Shown: positions 6,751 to 35,714, counted from the first letter of the stretch. The stretch is DNA of 37,930 nucleotides from Patescibacteria group bacterium (GCA_041661625.1 JBAZUB010000004.1:1-37930), one strand, 5' to 3'. Program-made: numbers and translations. Notes: a model not told the origin generated them from the letters alone.

Positions 6751-6786
6751 TGGCCCTTGACCGCGTTGCAGCAATAAGGAGGTTTC

Positions 6787-9038: not shown

Positions 9039-9061
9039 TAACCTATTAAAAGGAGTTTCAG

Positions 9062-10018: not shown

Positions 10019-10021
10019 ACG

Positions 10022-12020: not shown

Positions 12021-12028
12021 GGTAAAAT

Positions 12029-20523: not shown

Positions 20524-20747
20524 AATGCTAGCGGCTCCTTCTTTAAAAACTCTCCGGTTACAACGCTTCTAAGGCGCGGCCCGGTTGTAGCCTTACTAGT
20601 GCTAGACCAACACACCATTTCATATATAAAATACTTCCTATCAATGGCAGACCGCCTATGATATGGCTTACACTCTCCACACTTTCCAGCATGAAAACAG
20701 TTAGCCCTACAGGTTCTACAACATAGTTTAATATTACAACGACTCAC
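20520..20747 (-). CDS. Small Cys-rich protein or peptide (metal-binding partner or radical-SAM substrate candidate)
   Basis: 75 aa, MSRCNIKLCCRTCRANCFHAGKCGECKPY..., with 8 Cys in residues 4-25. The GTG start overlaps the upstream stop (GTGA) and its own stop overlaps the downstream ATG (ATGA). A GAAGGG RBS is present. Confidence 0.55.
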   Translation of the reverse strand: MSRCNIKLCCRTCRANCFHAGKCGECKPYHRRSAIDRKYFIYEMVCWSSTSKATTGPRLRSVVTGEFLKKEPLAL

Positions 20748-21979: not shown

Positions 21980-22449
21980 TTTGCTTTCTTCAACCCAATA
22001 AGCGCCGGGCCTTCCCTGTCATATTCCTTCAGGACCGCCGCCGTGGTTTCCTCTGCCGTCTTTGGGTAATAGATGGCCGCGTTTGTGAACGGGTTAAACT
22101 TATCAAAGCGCAAGATATCGGCATGACTGACACCCTGTCCTGGATAGTCAGCGTATCCCACAAGTTTAACATTGGCATTGTTAGCGTCAACATCAATCTT
22201 GATTTGCTCAAAGGCGCGTTCAAATAGGAATGGCGTAATGGTAAATACCCACGGCTTAAGCCCCTCAAGGGCCATGCCTGCCGCGATACCTACCATGCTT
22301 TGTTCAATCACGCCAATATTCAAGAACTGCTTTGGCCGTTCCTTGCGGAGGCGGTCGAAAATACCGAAGCCAATGTCCCCGACTAAGAGTATAACCTTAT
22401 CGTCTTTAATGGCAAGGTCGGCCAAGGCGTTTCCAAAGGCGGTTCTCAT
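21976..22449 (-). CDS. Transketolase-family ThDP enzyme, pyrimidine-binding (C-terminal-section) subunit, truncated
   Basis: 157 aa. MRTAFGNALADLAIKDDKVILLVGDIG..FLNIGVIEQSMVGIAAGMALEG matches the TK Pyr domain. There are ATGA overlaps on both sides. Confidence 0.75.
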   Translation of the reverse strand: MRTAFGNALADLAIKDDKVILLVGDIGFGIFDRLRKERPKQFLNIGVIEQSMVGIAAGMALEGLKPWVFTITPFLFERAFEQIKIDVDANNANVKLVGYADYPGQGVSHADILRFDKFNPFTNAAIYYPKTAEETTAAVLKEYDREGPALIGLKKAK

Positions 22450-23066
22450 TTCAATTCCTCCATAGCCTGATTATATTCCTCTTCCTTGATAGGCTTAACA
22501 TGGACATCGGGCCTGTCCTTAAACAGCCCTATCCCGTCACCCTTCACGCCGTGATGAATGATAACCCTAACGCCTGAATAAGACAGCATCTTCTTGACGC
22601 TGTAAATGGTCTTGCTTATCGCCTGATATTGGTTTGCGTCAATGTGAACCGTGAGCCGCCATTGCTGAAGGAACCGGCCCGCGAAAAGGATTGACTCCCA
22701 TGTTGTCCCCTCCGCACACTCCCCGTCACCTAACAGGACATGAACCTTGCCGGGATTGCCGGTTATCTGTTTGGCAAAGGCTATGCCGCAAGCTATCGGT
22801 AGGCCGTGACCTAGGCTTCCACCGGTGGTGACAACCCCATTCTTAGCGTCCCGGCTAGGCTCATGGTGCTGCCAATTAGGGGCCAGCCCGTAATCCTCAA
22901 GGACCGCATACAGGCCGTAAGCCCCGTGACCCTTGGACAGGATAAAGACATCATGGGCGCGGTTCATGATGGCGTAAATCTCGCGGATGATAGGCAGCGC
23001 GGAAAGCGCCGATGGCATGTGTGAATAGCCTATCTTGTAGGCTTGAGACAGCATCCGGCGCTTCAT
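22446..23066 (-). CDS. Transketolase-family ThDP enzyme, diphosphate-binding (N-terminal-section) subunit
   Basis: The motifs GHGAYGLYAVLEDYGL, GSLGHGLPIACGIA and LLGDGECAEGTTWES are present. The start is uncertain: ATG 23066 is given here, but TTG 23083 (just after GAGGGAGGG, overlapping the upstream stop) is also possible. Confidence 0.75.
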   Translation of the reverse strand: MKRRMLSQAYKIGYSHMPSALSALPIIREIYAIMNRAHDVFILSKGHGAYGLYAVLEDYGLAPNWQHHEPSRDAKNGVVTTGGSLGHGLPIACGIAFAKQITGNPGKVHVLLGDGECAEGTTWESILFAGRFLQQWRLTVHIDANQYQAISKTIYSVKKMLSYSGVRVIIHHGVKGDGIGLFKDRPDVHVKPIKEEEYNQAMEELK

Positions 23067-23080
23067 GTCCTTGAGTGATT

Positions 23081-23587
23081 TCAATTTCCCTCCCTCTTTG
23101 CAAATAGTTCTTTGAAATACCAATGGTCTTTGAATAAGTGCATCCTACCCTTAACCACATTATCGGGCCAATCCCACCACTTAATACCTAGCATCATTTC
23201 CCGTGTCTCTTTATTAAAGCGATAGCCCTGAATGGTGTTTCCATCCATGACCGCATAGGGCGGAACATCAACCGATACCCGTGAACCGGCCTTGATAATA
23301 GCGCCATCCCCTATGGTTATCCCTGCCGTAAGGATGCAATACGCCCCTATTAAAACATCATTCCCTATGGTAATCTTTCCAAGGGCTTTATTATTTGGGT
23401 AATCGGGACAGCCTAAATCTTCATTGAAAGCATAGTTTGAAACTAGTTTTCTATCCGATAATGACGGGTGGGCCACATCAACTATCCGCAACCATGCCGC
23501 AATAGATGTATATTTACCGACCACTACCTCGACCTTGTAAGGGTCTTTGAACGGCCTGCGGATAAATGAGTGAGCGCCAATGGTCAT
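23081..23587 (-). CDS. Hexapeptide-repeat acetyltransferase of the Vat/CatB (XAT) type
   Basis: 168 aa. ITIGNDVLIGAYCILTAGITIGDGAIIKAGSRVSVDVPPYAV..GYRFNKETREMMLGIKWWDWP closely follows the Vat(D)/CatB pattern recalled from memory. Confidence 0.75.
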   Translation of the reverse strand: MTIGAHSFIRRPFKDPYKVEVVVGKYTSIAAWLRIVDVAHPSLSDRKLVSNYAFNEDLGCPDYPNNKALGKITIGNDVLIGAYCILTAGITIGDGAIIKAGSRVSVDVPPYAVMDGNTIQGYRFNKETREMMLGIKWWDWPDNVVKGRMHLFKDHWYFKELFAKREGN

Positions 23588-24720
23588 ATAAAATTCACGC
23601 CCTTCAAGTCGCTAGGCACAGAGTCCGGCCAGTTGTATTTATGCCCCGCCTGCAAATAGTCATAACAAAACTTATTAGCCGCATCCTGCCTACACGCGCC
23701 CTTGCATTGGGTATGACTATCGAAATCTTCCCGCATGGCCTTGAGGATGTCCCAATAGCGGCGGCTTTCAAACATATCCTTAAGCCGCGCTTCGTGGACA
23801 TTACCGAACTTGTATTGCGCAAACCGTTTTTTATTACCGAAAAAATGCCCGCAAGGGAACCAATCCCCGTTGCCTGAAATCTCACTGATAAACGGGATGG
23901 ATGGACAGCCCTTATATGGCCGCTGCCCTTTCTGTTTAATCGTGTTCCACTTAACGATAATTTTAGTTGCCCGCGTTGACATGGCCTCGCATTGCTTGAG
24001 GCAGTCAATAGTTGATGGCGCGTCATAGGCGTTGACATCGAAATACTCCATGCCGCTTTCACCCTTATCCGGCAAGCTGCATTGTTTGATGACAAAGTAA
24101 TTCACGCCAAGGTCAACGGCTAGTTTAGCTTCGGCTATCATGTCCGCGTCCATCGTGCCGGGGATATAAACCGACTGCATACCTACATCGCAGGACAGGC
24201 CGTAATAGGCTTTGACATCTACAAGCTGCCTGATATTGGCTACAACCCTATCGAAGAAATCGCGGCCATGTATCTTCTGATAGCCTTCCCGTGTCCCGGC
24301 GCTAATGCAAAACCGCATCCAGGTACACGCCGAAAGAATAGCCTCCGCCTTATCGCGGGTATTTACCATAAGGCCGTTGGTAGATATGGCAAGGTCAAGG
24401 TGCGTCTTTTCGCGGGCGATTGCCAAGGCTTCCCACAGGTGCGGGTTGCATGTAGGCTCTCCATCCCCGATAAAGGCGATGGACTTCACACCTATCTCGT
24501 TGGCATCAAGGATGGTTTGTATCAACGGCTCACGCTTGATATATACAGGGGCTAACTCCTGATATTTACCATAGCAAAACACACACGCGATATTACAAAA
24601 CTTTGCTATACCCATGTCAATATGGATTGGCGGGACATGAAGGTTATGGTCAAAGTATGACTCAAGCCATCCCCGGTGATACATCAATTTTGTGCTGTCA
24701 CTCATGCGAGGGTCATCCAT
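23584..24720 (-). CDS. Radical SAM enzyme with a C-terminal auxiliary Cys region (SPASM/twitch-like)
   Basis: 378 aa from ATG 24720, with GGAGG 7 nt upstream. CNIACVFC matches CxxxCxxC, FIGDGEPT is present, and the C-terminus carries CPSIPF..PCGHFF..CKGACRQD. Confidence 0.8.
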   Translation of the reverse strand: MDDPRMSDSTKLMYHRGWLESYFDHNLHVPPIHIDMGIAKFCNIACVFCYGKYQELAPVYIKREPLIQTILDANEIGVKSIAFIGDGEPTCNPHLWEALAIAREKTHLDLAISTNGLMVNTRDKAEAILSACTWMRFCISAGTREGYQKIHGRDFFDRVVANIRQLVDVKAYYGLSCDVGMQSVYIPGTMDADMIAEAKLAVDLGVNYFVIKQCSLPDKGESGMEYFDVNAYDAPSTIDCLKQCEAMSTRATKIIVKWNTIKQKGQRPYKGCPSIPFISEISGNGDWFPCGHFFGNKKRFAQYKFGNVHEARLKDMFESRRYWDILKAMREDFDSHTQCKGACRQDAANKFCYDYLQAGHKYNWPDSVPSDLKGVNFI

Positions 24721-25489
24721 TGGCGGGCCTCCAATTGCGGACTGAATAGGGTAGTAAATCGCGGTCAACCTCTATTGTCTTCTGCCACACCCCGGCGCAG
24801 CCCACATAGTAATGATAAGCCGGGCCGGGTATCTTATCCCATACCTCTGCCTGCCATGTCTCAAGGTGAACCAGGGGCGGGGCGTATCTATCGCCCACCC
24901 GTGAGGTAGTCATCTTGCGGAATACTTCATCTATATCATCACGGACTAGCGCGAAGTGGTGGACTGTCACCCCGGCCATAAAGCGGCGCGGGTCGGCCCC
25001 GTTGCCGCGTATGCCCTGACAGATACACATGGGCCGGGTGAATATCGTAGGCTTAACCTGCGTTCCATAGGTATCATCCACCATGTAAAGCACATCTTTT
25101 ATATATGTGTGCATGTTACAGGTAAAGGCTTGAACATCTGCGGGCGCGTTAAACAGGTATTCCATTGCCCGTTCCCACGCCATTTCAGTCCATACCTCAT
25201 CACTATCAATCAGGAGTACCCAATCGGGTTTATAATGGGCCATGACAAACTGCTGGCCTATTCTATACTGTGCCTCTTGGTCCGTGGTGTCATGCTTAAG
25301 GACTACAATCTTTTTCAGCGGGTCAGGATAGGCGCGGGCCACGGCCTCTGTATTGTTGCCGTCCTTGCCGTCCCACCCTATATTGGATGAAACGAAAACA
25401 ATCTTATCCACATGATTATAGACGGAGGCTATCGAAGCCTCTAGGAACTCGCGGCCACGGAAAATCTTATAGAGCGCTACTATGTTCAC
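24713..25489 (-). CDS. GT2-like glycosyltransferase
   Basis: 258 aa. The N-terminus is ..FLEASIASVYNHVDKIVFVSS and LLIDSDEVW is a DxD-type motif. The GTG start has an AGGA RBS and overlaps the upstream gene by 23 nt. Confidence 0.6.
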   Translation of the reverse strand: MNIVALYKIFRGREFLEASIASVYNHVDKIVFVSSNIGWDGKDGNNTEAVARAYPDPLKKIVVLKHDTTDQEAQYRIGQQFVMAHYKPDWVLLIDSDEVWTEMAWERAMEYLFNAPADVQAFTCNMHTYIKDVLYMVDDTYGTQVKPTIFTRPMCICQGIRGNGADPRRFMAGVTVHHFALVRDDIDEVFRKMTTSRVGDRYAPPLVHLETWQAEVWDKIPGPAYHYYVGCAGVWQKTIEVDRDLLPYSVRNWRPANG

Positions 25490-26216
25490 CCTGCAATTCC
25501 TTTTCCCATGCCGTCTTTATCAGCGCAATCTGTCGGGCCTGCTCTTCGTTGCGCCATAAGGTAAGCCCGGCAAGGCTTTCAACCTCTGCCTCGCGGCTAT
25601 TGATAAACGCTAGGTTCTCATCGGGGTTAGCGCAAAGCATCCCTTGAAGGTGCCTGATAATAACCTCTGGCACTAGCGGGCATATTCCTAGGCCGTCACA
25701 AAGTTCCTTAGTATAACTGTCCTGGCCCCTATGCTTAACTGTTCGCGGATACGCAAAGCCTACTAACTGCGCCTGCTTGCGGCTCCATATTTCCATAGAC
25801 GGGTGCCGCCATGCAAACCAGTTATCATTGAGCCTGTCATCGCCACAGATAAAGCCCCATCCGTTTGACCGCTTCTCAAATTCGTTCAGTAATATCAAGT
25901 CCCAATTGGGAGTAATATAGCGAGCGTCATCGGTAATGATTTGGTAATATTCGTAATCGGGATAGCGCTCAAGGCAGGTGTGATTTAAAACTTCTTGCAT
26001 ACACCTATGTTTATCAACCACATAAAGCATGTTGTAGGTTGATGTATAGTGTCCAATCTTAGATAGGTAATCGCCTAGCTTCGGGTCATCGTTATGGAGA
26101 TAAACAAACATATCTCCATCATCGTCTAGGCCACGGGTTGCATAATATGTATCTAGCATTTGCGGTAATTCGTGTGGGCGGCGAAAGGTAGTGCAAATTG
26201 CGAGCAGGCGCTTCAT
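25467..26216 (-). CDS. GT-A-like glycosyltransferase (paralogue of module 1 of the 18090..19670 protein)
   Basis: 249 aa. LLAICTTFRRPHELPQMLDTYY parallels LLTMCSSHRRPDMLERMMKSW, and QIITDDARY parallels EINDDHVCR. This is the first gene of the operon. Confidence 0.55.
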   Translation of the reverse strand: MKRLLAICTTFRRPHELPQMLDTYYATRGLDDDGDMFVYLHNDDPKLGDYLSKIGHYTSTYNMLYVVDKHRCMQEVLNHTCLERYPDYEYYQIITDDARYITPNWDLILLNEFEKRSNGWGFICGDDRLNDNWFAWRHPSMEIWSRKQAQLVGFAYPRTVKHRGQDSYTKELCDGLGICPLVPEVIIRHLQGMLCANPDENLAFINSREAEVESLAGLTLWRNEEQARQIALIKTAWEKELQGEHSSAL

Positions 26217-27821: not shown

Positions 27822-28115
27822 TTACATGGCCGCCCGTTGCAAAAACTTCCATAGCACAACCTCGTAAATTGTAGCCGGGCGACACCCTCCGCTTTTTTCT
27901 TGGAGAACCCATATTCTCGCCCGGCGTTCTAGCGTAAATGTGAATTTTGTAATGGCATCACTTGCGCTTGTTGTACGGGCGGTCTTCCGCCGAACAGTCC
28001 GGGCGCTCTTTGCCTTTCTCCAGCTCAATCCCTGGCCACACTGAGGACAATCTTTATTGTTAACTCCACGGTGGGGCGGTTCACTCATGTCTTGTTTGCA
28101 TGTTGGACATTTCAT
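27822..28115 (-). CDS. Zinc-ribbon protein
   Basis: 97 aa from ATG 28115 (AAGGAG upstream): MKCPTCKQDMSEPPHRGVNNKDCPQCGQ.. The two CPxC knuckles suggest a zinc ribbon. Confidence 0.5.
   Translation of the reverse strand: MKCPTCKQDMSEPPHRGVNNKDCPQCGQGLSWRKAKSARTVRRKTARTTSASDAITKFTFTLERRARIWVLQEKSGGCRPATIYEVVLWKFLQRAAM
27970..27977. repeat. IR1 left arm (pairs with 28151..28158); weakest pair
   Basis: GTTGTACG against CGTACAAC. Only 8 bp pair, but both arms sit in the same AACAAGC / CCGTT contexts as the other pairs. Confidence 0.3.
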
Positions 28116-28150
28116 TTTAACTCCTTGTCTTTTGTCTTGGGGCAGGCTTG

Positions 28151-28158
28151 CGTACAAC
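28151..28158. repeat. IR1 right arm (pairs with 27970..27977)
   Basis: CGTACAAC lies directly after the stop codon of the 28161..28454 gene. Confidence 0.3.
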
Positions 28159-28160
28159 GG

Positions 28161-28454
28161 TCAGCCCAAGGCCGAAGCCGTGCGAAACTTGCCACACATA
28201 GTATTGTCGTCAACCTTACATGCCCGGTCACACCTCAAACAAGTTTCGCACGGTTTGGGGCCGTCCTCGGCCCGGCCTTGGGCATGTTGTGTGATCGTTG
28301 CCGGGCTTGCGGCGGTCTTAAATACAGGGCAATTTGAAATACAACACGGATAATCAAAGTCTCTTGCCCCACCTTCACCACATTGATCACTTTCGGATGA
28401 ATCGCTAAAATTGTTAATGCAGTATGCTTTAAATACTTCAAATGATACTTCCAT
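28161..28454 (-). CDS. Cys-rich hypothetical protein
   Basis: 97 aa: ..YPCCISNCPVF..PCETCLRCDRACKVDDNTMCGKF. It is preceded by the conserved leader module. Confidence 0.45.
   Translation of the reverse strand: MEVSFEVFKAYCINNFSDSSESDQCGEGGARDFDYPCCISNCPVFKTAASPATITQHAQGRAEDGPKPCETCLRCDRACKVDDNTMCGKFRTASALG
28286..28306. repeat. IR2 left arm (pairs with 28479..28498)
   Basis: GTTGTGTGA-TCG-TTGCCGGGC against the reverse complement of the right arm, GTTGTGTGA-CA-TTGCCGGGC. Confidence 0.6.
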
Positions 28455-28478
28455 CTTTGCCTTTCCGCCGCGCTATTT

Positions 28479-28498
28479 GCCCGGCAATGTCACACAAC
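28479..28498. repeat. IR2 right arm (pairs with 28286..28306)
   Basis: GCCCGGCAATGTCACACAAC, in the leader of the 28161..28454 gene. Confidence 0.6.
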
Positions 28499-28575
28499 GG
28501 TTGCACAAGGCCGAAGCGCGGTACTCCGCGTTTGGGAGAGGGGCCGAACCCCGGCCCCGAACCGGCCTTGTGCTT

Positions 28576-28600
28576 GTTGGCTGAAGTAAATTTGTGGCGC
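28576..28600. repeat. IR3 left arm (pairs with 29203..29227)
   Basis: GTTGGCTGAAGTAAATTTGTGGCGC matches the reverse complement of the right arm, GTTGGCTGAAATAAATTTGTGGCGC, at 24 of 25 positions. Confidence 0.75.
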
Positions 28601-28725
28601 TCTTTTCTTCAATGAATTTCCGTATCCTAGCTCGCATTGAAAGCGTCCACCCTTTTTCCATCAATTCTTTTAAAAGGCACCGACAAGAGGCCCCGATTAT
28701 GGGACATGTGTCCTCGCCTCGGGAA

Positions 28726-28890
28726 TTAGGCATTGTCGGCACCCCTGAATTTCTTTGCCAAAGCAATCAAAATCTGATTATAGAGTAGAGCATCTTTTTT
28801 CTTGTCAGTCATTCCAAGGGCCATGCCAAGCTGAACGGAATTAAGACCGTCAAGTTCTCTCTGAGCTTTTCTTAGTGTTTCTGTTTTCAT
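28726..28890 (-). CDS. Small regulator candidate (Cro/Xre-like?), below the ORF-track size cut-off
   Basis: 54 aa, MKTETLRKAQRELDGLNSVQLGMALGMTDKKKDALLYNQILIALAKKFRGADNA. There is a strong GGAGGA RBS 5 nt upstream and a consensus promoter just upstream. Confidence 0.5.
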   Translation of the reverse strand: MKTETLRKAQRELDGLNSVQLGMALGMTDKKKDALLYNQILIALAKKFRGADNA

Positions 28891-28908
28891 TGTTTCCTCC
28901 TTACCCTT

Positions 28909-28937
28909 AATATAATCAATTGTCAGACGATTGTCAA
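28909..28937 (-). promoter_or_regulatory. Sigma70-like promoter (leftward arm of the divergent switch)
   Basis: On the minus strand: TTGACA (28937-28932), 17 nt, then TATATT (28914-28909), followed by AAGGGTAAGGAGGAAACA ATG. Confidence 0.6.
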
Positions 28938-28964
28938 TACTTTTCTTTGATTTTCTTTATTTTG

Positions 28965-28993
28965 TTGACTTTCGTCCGACTATTCCTTATATT
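28965..28993 (+). promoter_or_regulatory. Sigma70-like promoter (rightward arm of the divergent switch) giving a leaderless mRNA
   Basis: TTGACT (28965-28970), 17 nt, then TATATT (28988-28993). ATG 29000 lies 6 nt after the -10 element. Confidence 0.6.
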
Positions 28994-28999
28994 TAGGGT

Positions 29000-29176
29000 A
29001 TGACAAACAAGAAACCCCACCTGATAACTGACAAAGAGCGGGGCCACCGGCCAGCCCTGAACCCTGGAGAGCCAACCGAGCGCCGTACAATCCGACTTCC
29101 GCAATCCCTTGCCCGAATTTGGGACGCGCTTGGCCCGGATAAAATACGCGATTTTCTGAAAAGCCTTGCATCTTAG
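29000..29176 (+). CDS. Ribbon-helix-helix (CopG/Arc-like) regulator candidate, below the ORF-track size cut-off
   Basis: 58 aa, MTNKKPHLITDKERGHRPALNPGEPTERRTIRLPQSLARIWDALGPDKIRDFLKSLAS. The RRTIRLP strand followed by two helices is RHH-like. The ORF has its own promoter, and the antisense track ORFs here look like translation artefacts. Confidence 0.5.
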   Translation: MTNKKPHLITDKERGHRPALNPGEPTERRTIRLPQSLARIWDALGPDKIRDFLKSLAS

Positions 29177-29202
29177 AGCCCTTGGGCGCGTTTCTTTGTC
29201 TT

Positions 29203-29227
29203 GCGCCACAAATTTATTTCAGCCAAC
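29203..29227. repeat. IR3 right arm (pairs with 28576..28600)
   Basis: GCGCCACAAATTTATTTCAGCCAAC. The pair flanks the Cro-like/RHH switch. Confidence 0.75.
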
Positions 29228-29244
29228 TTGTTGTAACACGAACC

Positions 29245-29448
29245 TTATTGCGTGATATGCTCCACATGCGCCCCTATTGCGAACCTTTGACACGGCCACG
29301 CAATGCAATCGCACTCCCGGTACACATCGGCCCAATCGCAGAATGTCCCGCGTATAACGCGCTGCTTGCACATGCCGTAACCACGGGTCGCGTCAAAGCG
29401 TGGATTGATGCGATGCGGGCAGGTCATGGCTTGCATTGGTTCGCTCAC
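29245..29448 (-). CDS. Small Cys-rich hypothetical protein
   Basis: 67 aa (..TCPHRINPRF..MCKQRVIRGTFCDWADVYRECDCIAWPCQ..). The GTG start has GGGGG 5 nt upstream. Confidence 0.4.
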   Translation of the reverse strand: MSEPMQAMTCPHRINPRFDATRGYGMCKQRVIRGTFCDWADVYRECDCIAWPCQRFAIGAHVEHITQ

Positions 29449-29465
29449 GGCAACCCCCTACAATC

Positions 29466-29744
29466 TCATTTCGTGCCAGTCGATGGCTTTGCCAAAGGCT
29501 TCAGCCTTTCGGACTCTGCGGCCATAGTCTGTAACTCGCGCTCCATTCGCGCCCGGCTTCGTTCCACAGCATCGCCCGCCTTGGCCGGAACCCTGGCCGG
29601 GTCGTCCTCCGATATCCAACAGGTCATCCGCTGTTGTATCTCTTTTGAGTCCAAGCGTTCTAATTTCTTCGTATTCGGCACACAAACCCCCAATGTAAAT
29701 TGATACCAGTAGACAGATAATAAGACAGACACATACTGCGGCAT
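29466..29744 (-). CDS. Hypothetical protein with a hydrophobic N-terminus and a charged helical C-terminus
   Basis: 92 aa from ATG 29744: ..KKLERLDSKEIQQRM..AVERSRARMERELQTMAAESERLKPLAK. The overlapping alternative frame 29458..29760 cannot be excluded. Confidence 0.35.
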   Translation of the reverse strand: MPQYVSVLLSVYWYQFTLGVCVPNTKKLERLDSKEIQQRMTCWISEDDPARVPAKAGDAVERSRARMERELQTMAAESERLKPLAKPSTGTK

Positions 29745-29874
29745 ATTCAATCCCCGTCATGGCGCAAGTCTCCGGTGAATGAAATCCCCCGGCCTACACC
29801 GTGCGGCGCGATGGTCAGGCCGGGTAGATTGAGCCTTGAAGGACCAACCAACAAAAGGTGCCGCAATGAAATCA

Positions 29875-30294
29875 TTACTTGCTACCCTTGATAAACTTCT
29901 TATCCAGTTCCTTAACCACCACCTTTTCGCCCGGCTCAATGAAATGCGCGATAGCTGTCTTAGGGTTAGCCAGCACCGCCGTTTTCTTCCATGCCGGGTT
30001 AAGCGGCAGTACCGCAAGCTGTTCAGGCGTGAACTCAAGCGCGGCCTTAATCGCCTCGCTGTCAAACCTGTCCTTGTCATCCTTGGCGATATACATCTTA
30101 GCCGTATCACTCAGGGATATTTCGCGGATGTTATTCTCACGAAAATACTTGATGATGGCCGCATCGTGCGCGTCCCTGGCCTCGCGTATCTTCTTTGCCG
30201 CAACCTCAAGCTGTGCGCGGAACACAAGGATATCAGCCTCAGACTCAACCGATATCTCAGGGACAGGCGTAAGGTCAATCTTGACGATATTCAT
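29875..30294 (-). CDS. Hypothetical early protein
   Basis: 139-aa ORF directly downstream of the 30297..30791 gene. No family was recognised. Confidence 0.5.
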   Translation of the reverse strand: MNIVKIDLTPVPEISVESEADILVFRAQLEVAAKKIREARDAHDAAIIKYFRENNIREISLSDTAKMYIAKDDKDRFDSEAIKAALEFTPEQLAVLPLNPAWKKTAVLANPKTAIAHFIEPGEKVVVKELDKKFIKGSK

Positions 30295-30296
30295 GT

Positions 30297-30791
30297 TTAG
30301 AATGGGGTAGTAGTGAAGGGGTCTTTGCCTTCATATAGCGCGTCGAGATTGATTGTCAACGGAACATACGCTGCCATGATTTCCTCAGCAACCGGACGCG
30401 GAGGCATTGGGTTGATTGCGTATTCTGTATTCATGCCGCTGCCGGTGCGGGTGACCTTGATATCATAATTGAAAGGCGCGCCCCATTCCTTATCTTCAGC
30501 GAGGCGCTGGATAGCCTGCTGGATTGTCTGCTGTGTGATTTCAATAATCTGAACCTTGGACGCTCCGTAATTCCAGACAACAAATGCCCAGAAATGTTTG
30601 ATGGCCTTGGCCGGGTCAATCGAATGTTCGGGCTTAGCGTTCATGTGAAAGCGGACGGGCTTTTTGTTATCCCAATCCAGCCATCCGATGATAGGCTTGG
30701 AGAGGATACGAAACTTGTTTTCCCCATCCTGCAAGCGCATGTACTTGCTATCGGTAGGGACTTTGTACTCATCAGGCAGGAAATCATTCAT
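30297..30791 (-). CDS. Conserved phage early protein, possibly ssDNA-binding
   Basis: 164 aa with RBS GGAGA. The pattern FRILSKPIIGWLDW..KPVRF..KHFWAFVVWNY..VQIIEITQQTIQQAI..WGAPFNYDIKVTRTG and the C-terminal ..DPFTTTPF recall phage SSB-like proteins. This rests on weak recollection only. Confidence 0.3.
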   Translation of the reverse strand: MNDFLPDEYKVPTDSKYMRLQDGENKFRILSKPIIGWLDWDNKKPVRFHMNAKPEHSIDPAKAIKHFWAFVVWNYGASKVQIIEITQQTIQQAIQRLAEDKEWGAPFNYDIKVTRTGSGMNTEYAINPMPPRPVAEEIMAAYVPLTINLDALYEGKDPFTTTPF

Positions 30792-30809
30792 TGTTCAGTC
30801 TCCTTTGAT

Positions 30810-31100
30810 TTAGTTAGGTATCCCATCGCCGCTATTATTGGCGATATGTTCGATTTGCTCAGGCTCTGCAGGTGTAGGGGCCGGGGCGGGCGCTGATAAC
30901 TCCTGCGCCTTTTCCTTGGCCAGCCCATCCATCAACCGGCACACCTCCATAATGGCGTCAATGGCAACCTGGCATGTCTCCGCAGCTTTCGGCCTACCGG
31001 TGCGGATGAAATGCGAGGCCAGTTCATCATAACGCATTACTGGGGCCGTGGCCTCATTGCGCACGATGTGGGCCAGGATGCCGTAATCTATGTCAGCCAT
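30810..31100 (-). CDS. Hypothetical protein
   Basis: 96-aa ORF with RBS GAGGGGG and an 8-nt overlap with the upstream gene. Confidence 0.5.
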   Translation of the reverse strand: MADIDYGILAHIVRNEATAPVMRYDELASHFIRTGRPKAAETCQVAIDAIMEVCRLMDGLAKEKAQELSAPAPAPTPAEPEQIEHIANNSGDGIPN

Positions 31101-31326
31101 TGGCTACCCCCTCGCTAGGTATGGTTTTGGCGTTATCCTCAATCCTTGACCCCTTGTAGCGCGTCCCACGGGCAGGGCCGGGGCGCTTCCGGTCAGGATA
31201 TGGCGTGTTAGGGTCAATCATTGTGACCGTCCCGAAAACATACGGGATGCGGCCCGCCTTGATAAGCTGCCGGACGCGGACCTCGGACACCCCGTTAGCC
31301 GCCGCATATTCCTTGATGGTTACCAT
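31093..31326 (-). CDS. Helix-turn-helix DNA-binding protein (Xis/AlpA/MerR-like HTH)
   Basis: 77 aa. MVTIKEYAAANGVSEVRVRQLIKAGRIPY is a typical short HTH. The gene has its own promoter. Confidence 0.5.
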   Translation of the reverse strand: MVTIKEYAAANGVSEVRVRQLIKAGRIPYVFGTVTMIDPNTPYPDRKRPGPARGTRYKGSRIEDNAKTIPSEGVANG

Positions 31327-31349
31327 AGTTTCCTTTCATTTCCTTTTAT

Positions 31350-31377
31350 AAGATAACTTATTATTTGGGAAAGTCAA
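31350..31377 (-). promoter_or_regulatory. Sigma70-like promoter upstream of the HTH gene
   Basis: On the minus strand: TTGACT (31377-31372), 16 nt, then TATCTT (31355-31350). Confidence 0.45.
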
Positions 31378-31386
31378 TACCTTTTC

Positions 31387-31752
31387 TCAATTTATTTTCG
31401 GTTCATCCGCTGCCGTGAAAACCTGTTTGCGGGTATTGGCCTTGATGTTCAGGTCATCAAACCACGGTTGCCCACGCCGTATTACCATCCAGTCCAAAAA
31501 CATGTGTGGATATTTGTGAGCATAAAACATGTGGTCCCCGTTACACAAACACACTCCGTTTGGCGGATATGTTCTAACCGATTTCAGGGACCGGCTGAAA
31601 ATGTGGTGTGCCGCCAATCCCCCTGGCCCCTTGCCGCAACGCTCACACCGCAACCCCGCCCGCAACTTGACCTCAGATGACCAAGCCTTATCCGCGACCG
31701 CCTGCCGGTATTTGCGCAGCGCCCGCCTATCCGCCGCATCCGTGCGCCTCAT
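31387..31752 (-). CDS. NinG/HNH-like nuclease candidate
   Basis: 121 aa from ATG 31752 (ATGA overlap): ..AWSSEVKLRAGLRCERCGK..LAAHHIFSRS..NGVCLCNGDH.. Confidence 0.45.
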   Translation of the reverse strand: MRRTDAADRRALRKYRQAVADKAWSSEVKLRAGLRCERCGKGPGGLAAHHIFSRSLKSVRTYPPNGVCLCNGDHMFYAHKYPHMFLDWMVIRRGQPWFDDLNIKANTRKQVFTAADEPKIN

Positions 31753-31976
31753 CGCGCAACCCCCGCGTACGCGCCCACCGGGAACGCGCCCCCGTACAAG
31801 CTCGATGTCAGGCCATGCACAAACGAGGGGCACCGGAAGGACACCGGGGCTAAAGGGCAGTACGCCGACTCGTGGCAGTTCTCACATTGGCGATAGCTTG
31901 CGTCAAGGTGTATCTTGGTTGCGCCCGCGCCGGTTTGATATGTCTCAACAGATGATTGACCATGCCAGCCGCCCAT
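31749..31976 (-). CDS. Small Cys-rich hypothetical protein
   Basis: 75 aa from ATG 31976, which lies 1 nt after the upstream TAA. The sequence contains ..YRQCENCHESAYCP..FRCP.. and its stop overlaps the next ATG. Confidence 0.4.
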   Translation of the reverse strand: MGGWHGQSSVETYQTGAGATKIHLDASYRQCENCHESAYCPLAPVSFRCPSFVHGLTSSLYGGAFPVGAYAGVAR

Positions 31977-31977
31977 G

Positions 31978-32208
31978 TTACCGCCCCTCCCGTAGCGCCG
32001 TGAAATATTCATCCTTGGCTATGCGATACTCCGCGTCAAGCCGTGAGCAATTAACCCGCGCCTTTTCCAGCCCGTCCTTGAGCGTAAGCAACTCGCGCTT
32101 GCGTTCGTTGATGGCAATCTCGACAACAGCCTTGGCCTCTAGCGCGGCTTGCTTCTCATGTTCAAGGCGGTGCATCTGTTCTTGTAGGTCGATGGATGAC
32201 GATGACAT
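31978..32208 (-). CDS. Coiled-coil hypothetical protein
   Basis: 76 aa with RBS AAGGAG: ..LQEQMHRLEHEKQAALEAKAVVEIAINERKRELLTLKDGLEKA.. Confidence 0.5.
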   Translation of the reverse strand: MSSSSIDLQEQMHRLEHEKQAALEAKAVVEIAINERKRELLTLKDGLEKARVNCSRLDAEYRIAKDEYFTALREGR

Positions 32209-32227
32209 GGGGACTCCTTAATTATGG

Positions 32228-32986
32228 TTACGGGGTGTCCAGTAGGTTAAGTTGTTCTGGTGGCTGCGGCTTGTTATATGCTGTTTCGCGGCTGCCTTTT
32301 GATTTCGGCGCGCTTTCTTCTCCGAATAGATTTCCCTGGGTTTGTTCCGTTATTCTTCGGGTTGCTTTTATCTGCCATTCTTCCGAAAGTTCAAAGGCTA
32401 TAAAATCCTTACCGAGAGTCCTGCAGCATATTGGCACAGTTCCGGAACCGCAGAACGGATCAACTACTAATTCGCAGGGCTGGAGACCGAGAAGCCAGTT
32501 GATGAGGGCAGGCGGTTTTTCGGCGGGATGGCCCGTTGGTTTTATTGAAGACCACGGAAATCTTTGTATATCATAAACTCCACGGTCAACAACGGCGTAT
32601 TCCGGATTGCAAATCAAAGCCACCAATTCATAGGACGGTCGCAAACCACGCGGACCGCCAGGCCCTATCCACTGCTTATCCCAAACAAGAAGAGATTCAA
32701 TTTGTTGACCAATTTCTAAAGTGGCCTTCATCACGGTTGGAATGGTTCGCCAATTCAAGAACGTCCACATTGCACCCGTGGGCTTTAATATTCTAAAAAC
32801 CTCCCGATACCAAGCCGCAAACCAATAAGAGGCGTTGGAAATATCAGCCCACGGATTTAATTTGCCAGCACCGCTACTGGCGGTTGTAAAAAGATACGGC
32901 GGGTCTGCTATTACGAGGTCAACAGACATAGTTTTAATCCGTTGTAATCCGGTCAGGCAATCTTCAAGGTGTATTTTATTTAGCAT
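32228..32986 (-). CDS. DNA methyltransferase, beta-class N6A/N4C family (DPPY type, probably N6-adenine)
   Basis: 252 aa. DLVIADPPY is motif IV, HPAEKP is present, and DPFCGSGT (motif I) lies near the C-terminus. This is the beta-class motif order. Confidence 0.85.
   Translation of the reverse strand: MLNKIHLEDCLTGLQRIKTMSVDLVIADPPYLFTTASSGAGKLNPWADISNASYWFAAWYREVFRILKPTGAMWTFLNWRTIPTVMKATLEIGQQIESLLVWDKQWIGPGGPRGLRPSYELVALICNPEYAVVDRGVYDIQRFPWSSIKPTGHPAEKPPALINWLLGLQPCELVVDPFCGSGTVPICCRTLGKDFIAFELSEEWQIKATRRITEQTQGNLFGEESAPKSKGSRETAYNKPQPPEQLNLLDTP
32273..32292. repeat. IR4 left arm (pairs with 33308..33327)
   Basis: GTTATATGC-TG-TTTCGCGGC against the reverse complement of the right arm, GTTATATGC-AA-TTTCGCGGC (18 of 20 positions). 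Confidence 0.7.
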
Positions 32987-33269
32987 TTTTTACTTGCTGC
33001 CCTTTGATTTCGTTTTCAATCAGAATGTTTACTAAGTGAATAAATTCTTCCGCCTCTGCTTGGTTTCGACCAATTGGTAGCCCATCAAATCCGTTTCCTA
33101 TTAATTCTGGCTGGTCTTTGTGTGACCAATGTACCACCTCGAAATATTTTAAAAAACTTTTTACTCTTGATAACTGCGACCTGTGGAACCTATCGTGGCA
33201 GTTGCTGCATTCGTATAGTTCTAGATACTCATACAGCCCAGACTCTTGTTCGGTTTCTTCTGCGTCCAT
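32976..33269 (-). CDS. Hypothetical protein (CxxC..H)
   Basis: 97 aa (..YECSNCHDRFH..), preceded by the conserved leader module. Confidence 0.45.
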   Translation of the reverse strand: MDAEETEQESGLYEYLELYECSNCHDRFHRSQLSRVKSFLKYFEVVHWSHKDQPELIGNGFDGLPIGRNQAEAEEFIHLVNILIENEIKGQQVKNAK

Positions 33270-33307
33270 TCTTTTCCTCTTTGCCTTTAGCGCGCCGTCT
33301 TTGTCTT

Positions 33308-33327
33308 GCCGCGAAATTGCATATAAC
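33308..33327. repeat. IR4 right arm (pairs with 32273..32292)
   Basis: GCCGCGAAATTGCATATAAC, in the leader of the 32976..33269 gene. Confidence 0.7.
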
Positions 33328-33329
33328 GG

Positions 33330-33539
33330 TTAGGCAACCCGAAGGCCGTCAGGCTTTGGGTCGGAGCCTGCGGAAGCAGGCGTAGCCGGGTTGCCGATTG
33401 TTGTAAGAAGTAAAACCGCCCGCTCCTTTTTCTTTAAATATTGTCTGATTCTTTTCCATGTATTTTTACAACGGCTCTTTAAATAGGTCGTTCCTGCAAT
33501 GCAACACACTCTTATAATTGGACACTCTCCACAATTCAT
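33330..33539 (-). CDS. Small Cys-rich hypothetical protein
   Basis: 69 aa from ATG 33539 (ATGA overlap): MNCGECPIIRVCCIAGTTYLKSRCKN.. Confidence 0.4.
   Translation of the reverse strand: MNCGECPIIRVCCIAGTTYLKSRCKNTWKRIRQYLKKKERAVLLLTTIGNPATPASAGSDPKPDGLRVA
33400..33423. repeat. IR5 left arm (pairs with 33825..33848)
   Basis: GTTGTAAGAAGTAAAACCGCCCGC matches the reverse complement of the right arm, GTTGTGTGAAATAAAACCGCCCGC, at 21 of 24 positions. Confidence 0.65.
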
Positions 33540-33790
33540 ACCCTCAGCTCCCATTTATCTACATTGCTAAAATGGATACAGCCGTGACAAGTCAAGCAAT
33601 CTTTTGTTTCGTATTCTCTTTGGTCGAACCAACGACAATCCGGGCACGATTTTGGAATATACAGGTTTTCTTTTATTATATCCAAAGCGGCCCTATCCAT
33701 TACATACAGTTCATCTTTATCTCCATAGGCTACAAGTTTAGCGTGAATCGAACCTTCAAAGACTTCTACTGCCTCTTGTAATGTTTTCAT
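33536..33790 (-). CDS. Small Cys-rich hypothetical protein
   Basis: 84 aa with RBS GGAGG (..SCPDCRWF..CLTCHGCIHF..), preceded by the conserved leader module. Confidence 0.5.
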   Translation of the reverse strand: MKTLQEAVEVFEGSIHAKLVAYGDKDELYVMDRAALDIIKENLYIPKSCPDCRWFDQREYETKDCLTCHGCIHFSNVDKWELRV

Positions 33791-33824
33791 TTATTTCCTC
33801 CGAGGGCTTGCCCGCGTTTGTCTT

Positions 33825-33848
33825 GCGGGCGGTTTTATTTCACACAAC
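33825..33848. repeat. IR5 right arm (pairs with 33400..33423)
   Basis: GCGGGCGGTTTTATTTCACACAAC, in the leader of the 33536..33790 gene. Confidence 0.65.
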
Positions 33849-33921
33849 GGCTGCCGCACCTGACGGACAATCCATAATCAATTTGCTCCGGCAGGTTCGC
33901 CCGAAGGCCCGTCCTCGGGCT

Positions 33922-34311
33922 TTACGGCTGCGGCTTGTTGTGTGATGTTTTGGCCGCTTCTTTGTCTTGCGCCGCTGGCTTTAATTCTTCAATCCAAGCG
34001 TTCGCGAGACCCATCAACGCCTCTGGTATTTTGGCATCACTCACAGCGTTGACCATTTTTGGCGTGACATAGATGATGGCCGCTTTCTTTGTGTTTGGAA
34101 CAAGCGTAATCGGAATAATAAGAATTAAAGAGAAGTAGATAAGTCGCTTCATCCAGTGTGCATATTGGTCCCGGCGATCTTGTTCCCAATCACCAAACAC
34201 CAAGGCAAGTCCGAGAACACCAGCGGCAATAATAGAAAGCCAGAAAACAACATTCAGGGCCATCGACAGATCGTCGAGCATCACGATAATGTAGACGAAT
34301 AATCCAGACAT
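33922..34311 (-). CDS. Membrane protein (2-3 predicted helices)
   Basis: 129 aa with RBS AAGGAG. Hydrophobic runs include LFVYIIVML, VVFWLSIIAAGVLGLALVF and LIYFSLILIIPITLV. The C-terminal tail ..TSHNKPQP is encoded by a repeat element. Confidence 0.5.
   Translation of the reverse strand: MSGLFVYIIVMLDDLSMALNVVFWLSIIAAGVLGLALVFGDWEQDRRDQYAHWMKRLIYFSLILIIPITLVPNTKKAAIIYVTPKMVNAVSDAKIPEALMGLANAWIEELKPAAQDKEAAKTSHNKPQP
33937..33957. repeat. IR6 left arm (pairs with 34354..34374)
   Basis: GTTGTGTGA-TG-TTTTGGCCGC against the reverse complement of the right arm, GTTGTGTGA-AA-TTTTGGCCGC (19 of 21 positions). Confidence 0.7.
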
Positions 34312-34353
34312 TTTTTCTCCTTTGTTTTCGCCTTTAGCGGCGCTCTTTGTTTT

Positions 34354-34374
34354 GCGGCCAAAATTTCACACAAC
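34354..34374. repeat. IR6 right arm (pairs with 33937..33957)
   Basis: GCGGCCAAAATTTCACACAAC, in the leader of the 33922..34311 gene. Confidence 0.7.
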
Positions 34375-34376
34375 GG

Positions 34377-34730
34377 TCAACGCACTTTTGCGACTCTCCA
34401 TAATTTTTTTAAGGAGCAAAAGAACGCCCGAAGTTTTGCACCAATCCAATAAATAAATTTAAGTACAAAATTTACGGGCTGCGTGTTGTTGGGCGCTGAT
34501 GCTTGCTCTGCCTTTGCGGGCGGCTCTTTCTTAATTGGAGCGGTAGTGGTAATTGTGGTAAACGCCGATTCAGGGCAGCGATGATGATATTTATTTATGT
34601 GGCGCGTACCATAACCGCCAATTCTATCGGGACACCAACAGCCACCGCAAGGCTCTGTTTTCTTTGTTCCACAAACCGGACAGGCAACGCGCCCATCAGA
34701 ATCAAGCATATCATATTCTTCTTTTAGCAT
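34377..34730 (-). CDS. Zinc-binding N-terminal / hydrophobic C-terminal hypothetical protein
   Basis: 117 aa from ATG 34730 (leader GGAAAGGCAAA): ..ACPVCGTKKTEPCGGCWCP..HHRCP.. followed by ..FVLKFIYWIGAKLRAFF. Confidence 0.45.
   Translation of the reverse strand: MLKEEYDMLDSDGRVACPVCGTKKTEPCGGCWCPDRIGGYGTRHINKYHHRCPESAFTTITTTAPIKKEPPAKAEQASAPNNTQPVNFVLKFIYWIGAKLRAFFCSLKKLWRVAKVR
34488..34508. repeat. IR7 left arm (pairs with 34759..34779)
   Basis: GTTGGGCGC-TG-ATGCTTGCTC against the reverse complement of the right arm, GTTGGGCGC-AA-ATGCTTGCTC (19 of 21 positions). Confidence 0.7.
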
Positions 34731-34758
34731 TTTGCCTTTCCGCCCGCTCTTCTGTCTT

Positions 34759-34779
34759 GAGCAAGCATTTGCGCCCAAC
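34759..34779. repeat. IR7 right arm (pairs with 34488..34508)
   Basis: GAGCAAGCATTTGCGCCCAAC, in the leader of the 34377..34730 gene. Confidence 0.7.
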
Positions 34780-34859: not shown

Positions 34860-35714
34860 TTAAGTGTCCAGACCCTCGCCAGCAGGACGGTCTTCTCTTG
34901 GCACGTAATATCCACCAAGGGCCTGCCGTATCTCTTCCGGTGTTGCAACCGGTCCATTGTCTATATCGTTAGGGTTTTGGTATCGCGGGCCATAGGATGC
35001 CTGAGGTGGTGGTGGCGGCGGCTCGTCTTCCCATCGGCGCTGATTGATGTAGGTTGCAGGCATTGGGATAAATTGGCCGTGTTCTTTGGTCCACTGTTCG
35101 GACTTGACCTGCCACTGAAGGGCCGATATGATATTCAATACGGTTTCAACCGGGCATTTAATTTTCAGCCATGCCTTTTCTGCGGCTCCCTTCCCGGTCT
35201 TTTTTGGATATGCTTTCCAAAACTGTTCAAACGGCAACCCCCCCTTGGGGGGTGTGGGGGGTATTATCTTTTCTTTTCTTTCCTCTACTCTACTCTCCTT
35301 TACTCTACTTTCCCCCATTGTTTGGGGATTGTTTGGGGATTGTTCGCCTAACAACTCTTTTTTGCGATAATTAATGGCATATTCTCGCTCTTTGGAAACT
35401 TCAGCTATTCTTTTTCGTACTCCGTTTGAAGTATAGACACCCCTTGAAATTTCGACTAAAAGGCCAAGCTGGATACAATCGGCAATTATCTTGGTTTGTT
35501 GTTCGGGAGATAGTCGGGCATTGTTAGCCGATAAATCCCCAAACAATCCGTTTAGGTTGACTTCTCCATGTTCTGTTTTATAGGCAGACTGCCAAAATTT
35601 CAAAATCCATACAAGGCCATTATTACCATGCAGTGTTTCTAATGCTTGAATTTGCTCGTTAAACGTGACATCCAGCGGAAAATAATCAAGACCTATTTTT
35701 TTAGAGCGTGCCAT
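34860..35714 (-). CDS. Replication initiation / replisome-organiser protein (DUF4373-like N-terminal domain)
   Basis: 284 aa. The N-terminus KKIGLDYFPLDVTFNEQIQALETLHGNNGLVWILKFW and the central FEQFWKAYPKKTGKGAAEKAWLK are patterns recalled from phage replication initiators. This is the first gene of the leftward block. Confidence 0.65.
   Translation of the reverse strand: MARSKKIGLDYFPLDVTFNEQIQALETLHGNNGLVWILKFWQSAYKTEHGEVNLNGLFGDLSANNARLSPEQQTKIIADCIQLGLLVEISRGVYTSNGVRKRIAEVSKEREYAINYRKKELLGEQSPNNPQTMGESRVKESRVEERKEKIIPPTPPKGGLPFEQFWKAYPKKTGKGAAEKAWLKIKCPVETVLNIISALQWQVKSEQWTKEHGQFIPMPATYINQRRWEDEPPPPPPQASYGPRYQNPNDIDNGPVATPEEIRQALGGYYVPREDRPAGEGLDT
35238..35344. repeat. Iteron-like repeats plus a G/C-tract palindrome inside the replication gene (ori candidate)
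   Basis: Three elements are present: the tract C7-TT-G6-TGT-G6 (35238-35261), TACTC/TACTCTAC repeats (35283-35310), and the tandem 11-mer ATTGTTTGGGG x2 with a partial third copy (35317-35344). Confidence 0.5.

Follow-up and report, generated by a model that had tools for sequence, protein, structure and literature searches.

The 37,930-nt stretch of DNA analysed here over its whole length (the window; JBAZUB010000004.1:1-37930, GCA_041661625.1, Patescibacteria group bacterium) is a complete, circularly permuted tailed-phage genome whose early genes are bracketed by seven inverted-repeat pairs (IR1 to IR7). We consider it likely, with a probability of about two in three, that the bracketing repeats are the split halves of gene-specific hairpin recombination sites and that the bracketed genes are mobile cassettes exchanged at a GTT triplet, in a fashion resembling integron cassettes. 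The most likely process is site-specific, structure-guided cassette exchange at GTT via a circular intermediate. This reading draws on the anatomy of the bracketed units, on their excess over chance, on conservation and covariation in eight phage genomes, and on GTT-bounded blocks that occur in different contexts.

The plus strand carries the genes for portal, protease, capsid, tube and tape measure, and the large terminase open reading frame (ORF) crosses the window end and continues at the window start. The entire early region, from 35.7 kb down to 18 kb, is on the minus strand. The repeat pairs tile this region without nesting, as the original prediction had it, and are arranged as two arrays: array A (IR7 to IR4, 34779 down to 32273) and array B (IR3 to IR1, 29227 down to 27970). 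Between them is a 3-kb conserved core block encoding SSB/annealing-like, HNH and HTH proteins. The cassettes of the window carry a DNA methyltransferase, a membrane protein, several Cys-rich small proteins and one two-gene module with divergent promoters.

All seven pairs are present where they had been predicted from the sequence, and the reported complementarity was reproduced: 24/25 for IR3, 18/20 for IR4, 21/24 for IR5 and 19/21 for both IR6 and IR7. IR2 consists of two 9-bp helices flanking a 2x3 internal loop. Six of the seven pairs are solid, while IR1, an 8-bp remnant, is not significant if taken alone. As a control for chance, pairs with at least 18/21 matches located 100-1200 nt apart were counted in the native sequence and in 200 dinucleotide shuffles. 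The interval 27.9-35.0 kb contained five such pairs versus a shuffle mean of 0.035 (maximum 1), and the whole window six versus a mean of 0.2. Across the window, the 5'-arm motif has only seven copies, and these are confined to this region and its coding strand.

Read along the coding (minus) strand, a unit opens at a GTT that is preceded by (A/C)C; its 5' arm is composed of this GTT, a Z box of 6 nt, AA and an X block of 9-13 nt. The arm is followed by the purine-rich motif AAGACAAAGA, in four units by one half of a GC-only helix (stem 2), and then by AAAGGCA or a Shine-Dalgarno (SD) sequence, the ATG and one or two ORFs. The unit is completed by the stem-2 complement and the 3' arm, X'-C-N-Z'-AAC. 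Stem 2, which did not figure in the original prediction, is a second, pair-specific helix of 6-8 bp located inside four of the pairs. Both AAGACAAAGA and AAAGGCA are recurrent; the former occurs 13 times at no more than one mismatch versus 1.8 expected. As predicted, the arm on the right in plus-strand coordinates is the 5' leader of a minus-strand gene, often immediately past the preceding stop codon, and the left arm is mostly within an ORF, in varying frames.

The segments between neighbouring pairs of the window, 72-127 nt long (45-155 nt across the family described below), are hairpins, designated J, whose stems abut the AAC and GTT triplets. In the window, the GC-rich stem of J begins 2-4 nt past AAC and stops 4-5 nt short of the next GTT. 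The ORFs usually cross the 3' arm into J and end within it, 15-110 nt beyond the arm, with the stop codon just upstream of the next GTT.

The junction hairpins supply C-terminal tails to the upstream proteins, and unrelated proteins thereby have common tails. The tail ..NKPQP is present in both the methylase (32228-32292) and the membrane protein (33922-33957) of the window. The related phage locus L143 has the tail TQQGTQAA(K/E)EKDAASGHC on two proteins (5508-5450 and 5130-5072), and another, L018, has Cys-rich zinc-ribbon-like tails at 12178-12321 and 13103-13249. This is exchange of protein modules at the AAC boundary.

We found the same design in seven further uncultivated phage contigs (L018, L134, L136, L143, L158, L186 and L191) by protein and DNA-pattern searches, giving 45 units in eight genomes. 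L018 is the same phage as L042, L107, L137 and L213-L215. The densest array, in the 253-kb contig L191 (IMGVR_UViG_3300017917_002466, locus 5600-12100), packs at least 25 micro-cassettes of 155-380 nt into 6.7 kb. One of its units (8482-8313) has no convincing ORF; the payload, closed by its own 10-bp inner repeat GCAATTTGGC/GCCAAATTGC, looks like a structured RNA and gave no Rfam or tRNA match. L158 (JBAZUJ010000017.1), a 38-kb contig of a metagenome-assembled genome (MAG) binned as Chitinophagaceae, is a member of the phage family. Strong AGGAGG SD sites found across the family fit a Bacteroidota host poorly; judged by these sites, the binning of L158 may be wrong.

Searches with the 164-aa core protein yielded 17 loci and those with the replication protein 24 viral and 61 metagenome loci, among which the architecture was present in one phage only, L018 (=L042); the replication-protein relatives L133, L135 and L139 have no units, and L137 proved to be the phage of L018 itself, truncated where its first cassette boundary lies. 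The pattern CGTACAACAA(N)CGCAAG produced 30 matches, only that in the contig of L018 being true, and the genome-contig scan produced 25 matches with one family member (L158). Arm-pair scans of other related loci (∼1 Mb in the first batch) revealed no further such units. Scans of viral contigs with the IR6 and IR5 cassette proteins found nothing, the DNA of the region had no match among 50,697 GenBank phages, and for the window and six related loci no Rfam family was found and tRNA scans were negative. A literature search on attC-like phage elements and palindromic intergenic cassettes in phage early regions returned no description of this design. The pattern ACAAC-N-CGC-N-AAGGGATGAAA was observed, in excess of chance, at nine places in five Terriglobia MAGs, often twice per contig; bracketing units are present in none of these loci (L145, L152, L155-L157, L159, L161, L165, L167 and L168, from the genome-contig collection).

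Across the family, GTT and AAC are invariant (45/45 units). The central mismatch that had been reported for the window pairs is real, and it generalizes: at position 11, 44 of 45 units have an A on the 5' arm facing a C on the 3' arm. At position 10, the 37 units that have no extra 3'-arm base show A:A (27), A:T (6), C:G (3) and C:A (1). Watson-Crick pairing over the 45 units is 375/405 for GTT plus Z box and 470/488 for the X block; the Z-box mispairs are A.C or C.A in 14 cases and G.U in one. In aligned arm pairs, 94.9% of the cells are paired versus 56.9% in shuffles and 33-41% with the partner slid, and 330 cells are changed on both arms versus 101 in shuffles, figures that carry an ascertainment bias as the units were collected through a complementarity filter.

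The IR6 membrane protein and its ortholog in L136 are 49% identical at the amino acid level; their arms and stem 2 are unrelated in sequence, and pairing is kept in both. The alignment of related phages that the original prediction called for, as a test of compensatory change, gave an instance: between unit U1 of L018 and its ortholog in L191 (8781-8619), position 6 of the Z box differs on both arms (A-T to G-C), with the A.C pairs at positions 8 and 11 retained.

Movement of cassettes was seen in the relatives. Contig L216, which comes from another sample, contains unit U1 followed by its hairpin, a block 99.7% identical to L213 9962-10275. There it directly follows hairpin J8 (L213 12245-12371, 99.2% identity), which in L213 precedes unit U9, and new cassettes lie downstream of U1. 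Contigs L217 and L218 have in common a 319-nt block of 100% identity, from the G of GTTGGTTGC to ..GCGTAAAC-GTTG, with unrelated sequence on both flanks. Each of these four strain-level breakpoints coincides with the GTT triplet, and the sequence shared there does not exceed about 7 nt. What moves is a block from GTT through gene, AAC and hairpin as far as the next GTT. The L018 phage was also assembled independently (L137/L215, Logan SRR9617948_326879; 99.97% identity over 12.3 kb), and this contig ends exactly at ..GCGTAAACGTT (..AAACGTT), the first internal cassette boundary, which is what one expects if variable cassette order in the population makes the assembly graph branch.

Scars of cassette-wise gene acquisition were among the meanings first offered for the repeats. 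Acquisition by cassette is upheld by the 99-100% identical blocks in different contexts; that the scars are passive is not. Since a unit is found in different contexts with breakpoints at GTT, the repeats are better described as halves of a recombination site.

The folding of the repeats leads to the same description. If the 3' arm, J and the 5' arm of the same unit are joined, they form one long hairpin of -38 to -59 kcal/mol (DNA parameters), versus -20 to -45 kcal/mol for native hybrid junctions. The layout of the reconstituted hairpin is an X stem, a small mismatch, a 9-bp R box, an unpaired spacer, an L stem and a variable tip. As the joined parts make a single hairpin, we take the repeats to be the outer halves of the cassette's own site. 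In L158 and L136, where adjacent cassettes share one type of arm, a single local palindrome is made up of the 3' arm, J and the 5' arm.

The proposed mechanism has the following steps. A cassette excised as a circle would have its 3' arm, J and its own 5' arm contiguous. On a single DNA strand, these parts would fold into one long imperfect hairpin with the X stem, an A.C (or G.T) mismatch, the 9-bp R box containing AAC/GTT, the spacer, a bulged L stem and the variable tip. Site-specific exchange at a resident GTT would then insert the circle and split the palindrome, leaving its halves to bracket the gene. The recombinase is probably host-encoded; it could be a tyrosine recombinase of the integron-integrase kind or an unrecognized enzyme. 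A possible further effect of arm pairing within an array is to juxtapose the sites on either side of a cassette, which would help single cassettes to be cut out cleanly.

The published attC site is 57-141 bp long, with AAC/GTT as the sole conserved sequence and the cassette boundary between G and TT (Nivina et al. 2016, PMC5027507). The elements described here are alike in several respects. The gene is followed by a palindrome of 45-155 nt that closes near both triplets, and AAC...GTT are the only invariant bases. In 40 junctions the AAC..GTT span has a median of 80 nt and a mean z-score of -3.9, and 39 of the 40 have a single outer helix starting 1-4 nt past AAC and ending 4-5 nt before GTT. 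The boundary lies on GTT, and the gene is mobile together with its downstream site (this is shown in the relatives, not in the window). As in integron cassettes, the cassette start is complementary to the inverse core of its own site, not to that of the upstream site. The genes are co-oriented, small and mostly promoterless, as they are in integron arrays. At position 11, A.C on the coding strand means G.T on the template strand; G:T mispairs have likewise been published as enriched on the bottom strand of attC. The template (non-coding) strand of J is the more stable one in 30 of 40 junctions. Clusters of attC sites without an integrase (CALINs), including DNA-methylase cassettes, have been described in virulent phages and are recombined by IntI1 (PMC9892861, Qi et al. 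2023). A DNA-methylase cassette and the lack of an integrase in cis are features of our array as well.

There are differences too. Complementarity between the cassette start and its own site extends over 20-25 nt plus a helix of 6-8 bp, compared with 6-7 nt in integrons, and the near-invariant A.C/G.T mismatch stands 11 nt from the triplet. The R box gives a mixed picture, the family consensus being GTTGTnTGnAA versus RYYYAAC/GTTRRRY in attC; GTTAGAT, GTTGGGC and GTTAGGT fit the latter, while most units have Y at position 5. Unlike in integrons, the ORFs routinely cross the site and gain a C-terminal tail from it, and the elements belong to early operons of phages, in which the number of micro-cassettes reaches 25 or more. 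The published CALIN of phage TJE1 has a canonical attC and, unlike the units described here, no bracketing arms. We say that the system works like an integron cassette array, and do not file its sites as canonical attC.

Besides the ascertainment bias in the covariation counts, several observations weigh against the integron-like reading. No integrase or other recombinase family was detected among the genes of the complete 37.9-kb genome, and in this respect the original statement that no recombinase is encoded holds for the whole phage. Measured against the integron platform (intI, attI and Pc beside the array), the system is at most a CALIN. The 12-15 bp of pairing past the R box have no counterpart in canonical attC. 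The spacer is asymmetric: AAC is followed by 1-2 unpaired nt (rarely 3-4) and GTT is preceded by 4-5, where the canonical site has 5-6 on each arm. Bulged bases are on the coding-strand GTT arm, not near L'' on the AAC arm as in canonical attC. The helix of 15 of the 40 junctions is first interrupted, after 6 bp, by a single bulged nucleotide on the GTT arm (G in 11), and within the first 12 bp the 40 junctions have 58 unpaired nucleotides on the GTT arm versus 35 on the AAC arm. The control site attC-aadA1, with its sequence verified against 1,962 plasmids at 99% identity or more, has its bulges on the AAC arm. No circular junction was observed, and movement of the window's own cassettes was not seen, there being no close relative in the databases.

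Older breakpoints add to these points. Some lie just after AAC: in L217, a hairpin 97% identical to the J of U1 stands behind an unrelated unit; the U1 orthologs of L018 and L191 have common sequence limited to GTT..AAC plus AACGC; and L143 has two near-identical J hairpins downstream of different units. Another is at the AA/CA mismatch, where the imperfect Z pair GTTGTAGTC..GCCTACAAC is associated with different X blocks in L018 and L216. Yet others are at stem 2, with the same frame around different payloads in L136 versus L158 and twice in L191. A single crossover point does not explain all events. Over time, every helix-helix junction seems able to serve as an exchange point; exchange at several such junctions leaves room for a homologous or template-switch contribution. 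The Z pair GTTGTAGTC..GCCTACAAC has a T.C mispair (L018 13252-13513 versus L216 434-620), and the Z pair GTTGGTTGC..CAG-NCAACCAAC recurs with its extra base together with different X blocks and payloads (L018 12324/14735, L191 11020/10233, L217 566). Such recurrence suggests that exchange also takes place at the AA/CA mismatch, as a second, nested point.

A bolder reading goes further. Tentatively, and at less than even odds, we may be dealing with a phage-borne exchange system that parallels integrons and is mechanistically distinct from them. Its marks would be long self-addressed hairpins, mirror-image bulges, an asymmetric spacer and an obligatory A.C/G.T mark; the cassette-specific arms, paired across the gene in single-stranded DNA, would pre-align both sites, the catalyst would be a host or phage enzyme other than a classical IntI, and the phages of the clade would trade, to the exact nucleotide, early genes (probably for host takeover or anti-defence) and even C-terminal modules.

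A first alternative, which we consider unlikely, is homologous or microhomology-driven shuffling between co-infecting relatives within conserved linker or regulatory modules, comparable with the PeSL (promoter-early stem-loop) elements of T4-type phages; no site-specific recombinase would be needed, and the arms would simply travel with the gene. PeSL are promoter-plus-terminator composites exchanged by homologous recombination (PMC2839356, PMC4122927) and provide a precedent. Like the elements described here, they are repeated structured intergenic elements beside small accessory early genes in hyperplastic regions, and they mark the boundaries of gene gain, loss and replacement. Shuffling of this kind would account for a single frame (arms, leader, stem 2 and J) enclosing unrelated payloads, as in L136 versus L158 and in two units of L191, and for the breakpoints after AAC and at the AA/CA mismatch; moreover, the phages encode single-strand-annealing or SSB-like proteins and RusA or HNH. 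However, the four strain-level breakpoints, delimiting blocks of 99-100% identity, all hit one triplet; their shared sequence is too short, and their position too precise, for homologous exchange. Shuffling would impose no selection for complementarity of the arms, and yet complementarity is kept in orthologs with diverged arms and through compensatory change. The junctions have no promoter-plus-terminator composite either: neither promoter-like sites (at least 10/12) nor terminator-like sites were found on the coding strand of any junction, and strong promoter-like sites are present only in the IR3 cassette. Unlike in PeSL, breakpoints here lie on one triplet and the flanks of a gene are mutually complementary.

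A second alternative, slightly less probable still, is that the repeats act as RNA. The leader would pair with the 3' part of its own cistron in a polycistronic early transcript, with RNase III processing, stabilization or translational control by stem 2 as the outcome. Long-range RNA stems had been proposed from the start, and a co-folding run shows that they are thermodynamically possible: both the arms and stem 2 are present in the minimum free energy fold of the sense RNA of the IR7 unit (-105.6 kcal/mol, z = -4.25). RNase III stalks, such as those of rRNA operons and the T7 early mRNA, form when the two flanks of a functional unit, hundreds of nucleotides apart, join in a helix of at least ∼20 bp that contains a mismatch. 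The arm helix of 20-25 bp with its internal mismatch has the size of an RNase III substrate, judged from the T7 and rRNA sites; the 5' arm is in the leader, stem 2 abuts the SD sequence, and covariation alone cannot distinguish RNA from single-stranded DNA.

A role as processing stalks is nevertheless disfavoured, although RNA pairing of the arms may occur as a side effect. Here, in contrast to RNase III stalks, the 3' side of the helix is itself traversed by coding sequence: the ORFs extend through the 3' arm to a stop codon in J, so that cleavage in the arm helix would generate non-stop mRNAs. The invariant mismatch is A.C in the sense RNA and G.U in the antisense RNA, and the skew of the Z-box mispairs toward A.C/C.A (14 versus one G.U) has the same direction. 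The antisense fold of the IR7 unit is the more stable one (z = -5.04), and the IR3 unit contains divergent promoters and a plus-strand gene. Finally, the invariant GTT/AAC, and the fact that helix ends coincide with recombination breakpoints on these triplets, would be left unexplained.

The third alternative, also raised in the original prediction, holds that the pairs are inversion sites with pair-specific cores, by which single genes would be flipped and silenced as in invertons or shufflons; we regard it as very improbable and reject it. Inversion switches (invertons, shufflons, Hin/Gin/Cin) consist of short inverted repeats around a DNA segment, and the inverted, pair-specific arms would indeed block cross-recombination between pairs. 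However, all 45 units in the eight genomes have the same polarity and a conserved arm asymmetry, with A at position 11 (A or C at position 10) of the 5' arm and C in the 3' arm. Flipped alleles would read ..TG.. at the 5' arm, whereas no orientation polymorphism was seen, all genes are co-oriented, no invertase or tyrosine recombinase is encoded, and the variants observed are re-orderings. Other candidates were rejected: miniature inverted-repeat transposable elements or transposon terminal repeats (arms differ between units, no transposase), IS200/IS605-type ends (the hairpins at the two ends would have to be of one kind, and are not), archaeal bulge-helix-bulge elements (wrong geometry, and promoters of the bacterial sigma-70 type) and dif/Xer sites (no similarity).

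We now give the units of the window in the order of transcription, all features being on the minus strand. Array A begins with IR7, whose 5' arm (34759-34779, GTTGGGCGC-AA-ATGCTTGCTC) is preceded by ..GGGACAA instead of a hairpin. Its 3' arm (34488-34508, GAGCAAGCAT-CA-GCGCCCAAC) lies within an ORF running from 34730 to 34377, and the 5' half of stem 2 (34740-34747, GCGGGCGG) pairs with the 3' half at 34516-34523 (CCGCCCGC). The junction between IR7 and IR6 (34375-34487) is attC-like (AAC, 3 nt, stem ... stem, 5 nt, GTT) and encodes the C-terminal tail and the stop codon of the IR7 ORF. The arms of IR6 are located at 34354-34374 (5' arm, GTTGTGTGA-AA-TTTTGGCCGC) and 33937-33957 (3' arm), the halves of its stem 2 at 34337-34342 (CGCCGC) and 33970-33975 (GCGGCG), and its cargo is a 129-aa membrane protein (34311 to 33922). 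The next junction hairpin (33849-33936) leads to IR5, with a 5' arm at 33825-33848 (GTTGTGTGA-AA-TAAAACCGCCCGC) and a 3' arm at 33400-33423; its X block is perfect, its Z box has two mismatches, and the unit contains two ORFs. A further junction hairpin (33328-33399) separates IR5 from IR4. The latter has arms at 33308-33327 (5' arm, GTTATATGC-AA-TTTCGCGGC) and 32273-32292 (3' arm), stem-2 halves at 33290-33296 (GGCGCGC) and 32307-32313 (GCGCGCC), and carries a 97-aa ORF plus an N6/N4 DNA methyltransferase (32986 to 32228). Array A ends with a truncated junction (32228-32272) that starts with AAGCCGCAGCC, as does the junction between IR6 and IR5, and is without a closing stem or GTT.

IR3, the first unit of array B, has its 5' arm at 29203-29227, directly preceded by the 3'-arm-like sequence GTGTTACAAC-AA (29228-29240), and its 3' arm at 28576-28600. 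It carries two small ORFs in divergent orientation together with divergent promoter-like sites of their own: one ORF is on the minus strand (28890 to 28726), the other on the plus strand (29000-29176), and no other sequence of the region matches a sigma-70 promoter as well as two sites in the space between them (11/12 and 10/12). Pfam and PHROG gave no match for either ORF; the cassette (28576-29227) looks like a self-contained regulatory or toxin-antitoxin-like module. After a junction hairpin (28499-28575), IR2 follows with arms at 28479-28498 (5' arm, GTTGTGTGA-CA-TTGCCGGGC) and 28286-28306 (3' arm, GCCCGGCAA-CGA-TCACACAAC) and stem-2 halves at 28465-28471 (GCGGCGG) and 28309-28315 (CCGCCGC). 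The junction between IR2 and IR1 (28159-28285) is the longest, with a DNA fold of -38.7 kcal/mol. At IR1, the 5' end retains the full family motif, CC followed by GTTGTACGCAA...CAAGACAAAAGAC-SD-ATG; the arm motif itself is at 28138-28158 (GTTGTACGC-AA-GCCTGCCCC, then AAGACAAAAGAC). The 3' end reads ..CGTACAAC and, across the boundary, AAGCGCAAG; of the 3' arm, the R-box half CGTACAAC alone remains (27970-27977). Because it carries the family 5' motif, we read IR1 as a presumably decayed unit, the last of array B.

Two other features of the early region lie outside the arrays. The longest inverted repeat of the region (35326-35354/35521-35549; 29 nt, 90%) is within the replication-organiser gene (34860-35714, Lin1244_N). 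The rep genes of relatives have an equivalent repeat at the corresponding position (L133 3287-3500, L134 1258-1471), and we rejected this repeat as a member of the cassette series, since conservation inside the rep genes makes it more likely an origin; it is probably the replication origin. Downstream, positions 18090-26216 (minus strand) contain a large biosynthetic cluster with three radical S-adenosylmethionine (SAM) enzymes (one B12-binding, one SPASM), a split transketolase-like thiamine pyrophosphate enzyme, a hexapeptide acyltransferase and three glycosyltransferases. Radical-SAM genes are found downstream of the cassette arrays in L134 and L143 as well. Modification of DNA or of surface sugars is our guess for the function of this cluster.

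Gain and loss of accessory genes in phage early regions is largely explained by illegitimate or homologous recombination. What we describe here is site-specific traffic of cassettes, clade-wide and precise to the nucleotide, in arrays that reach 25 or more micro-cassettes. The principle of the integron, in which folded single strands provide structure-specific sites, would thereby reach into phages as a native organizing system, beyond the occasional captured attC. The long cassette-specific stems offer a testable idea of how the two sites flanking one cassette meet. Since the sites themselves encode the leader, the SD sequence and C-terminal tails, they are portable expression frames, which bears on the origin of cassettes and on their engineering.

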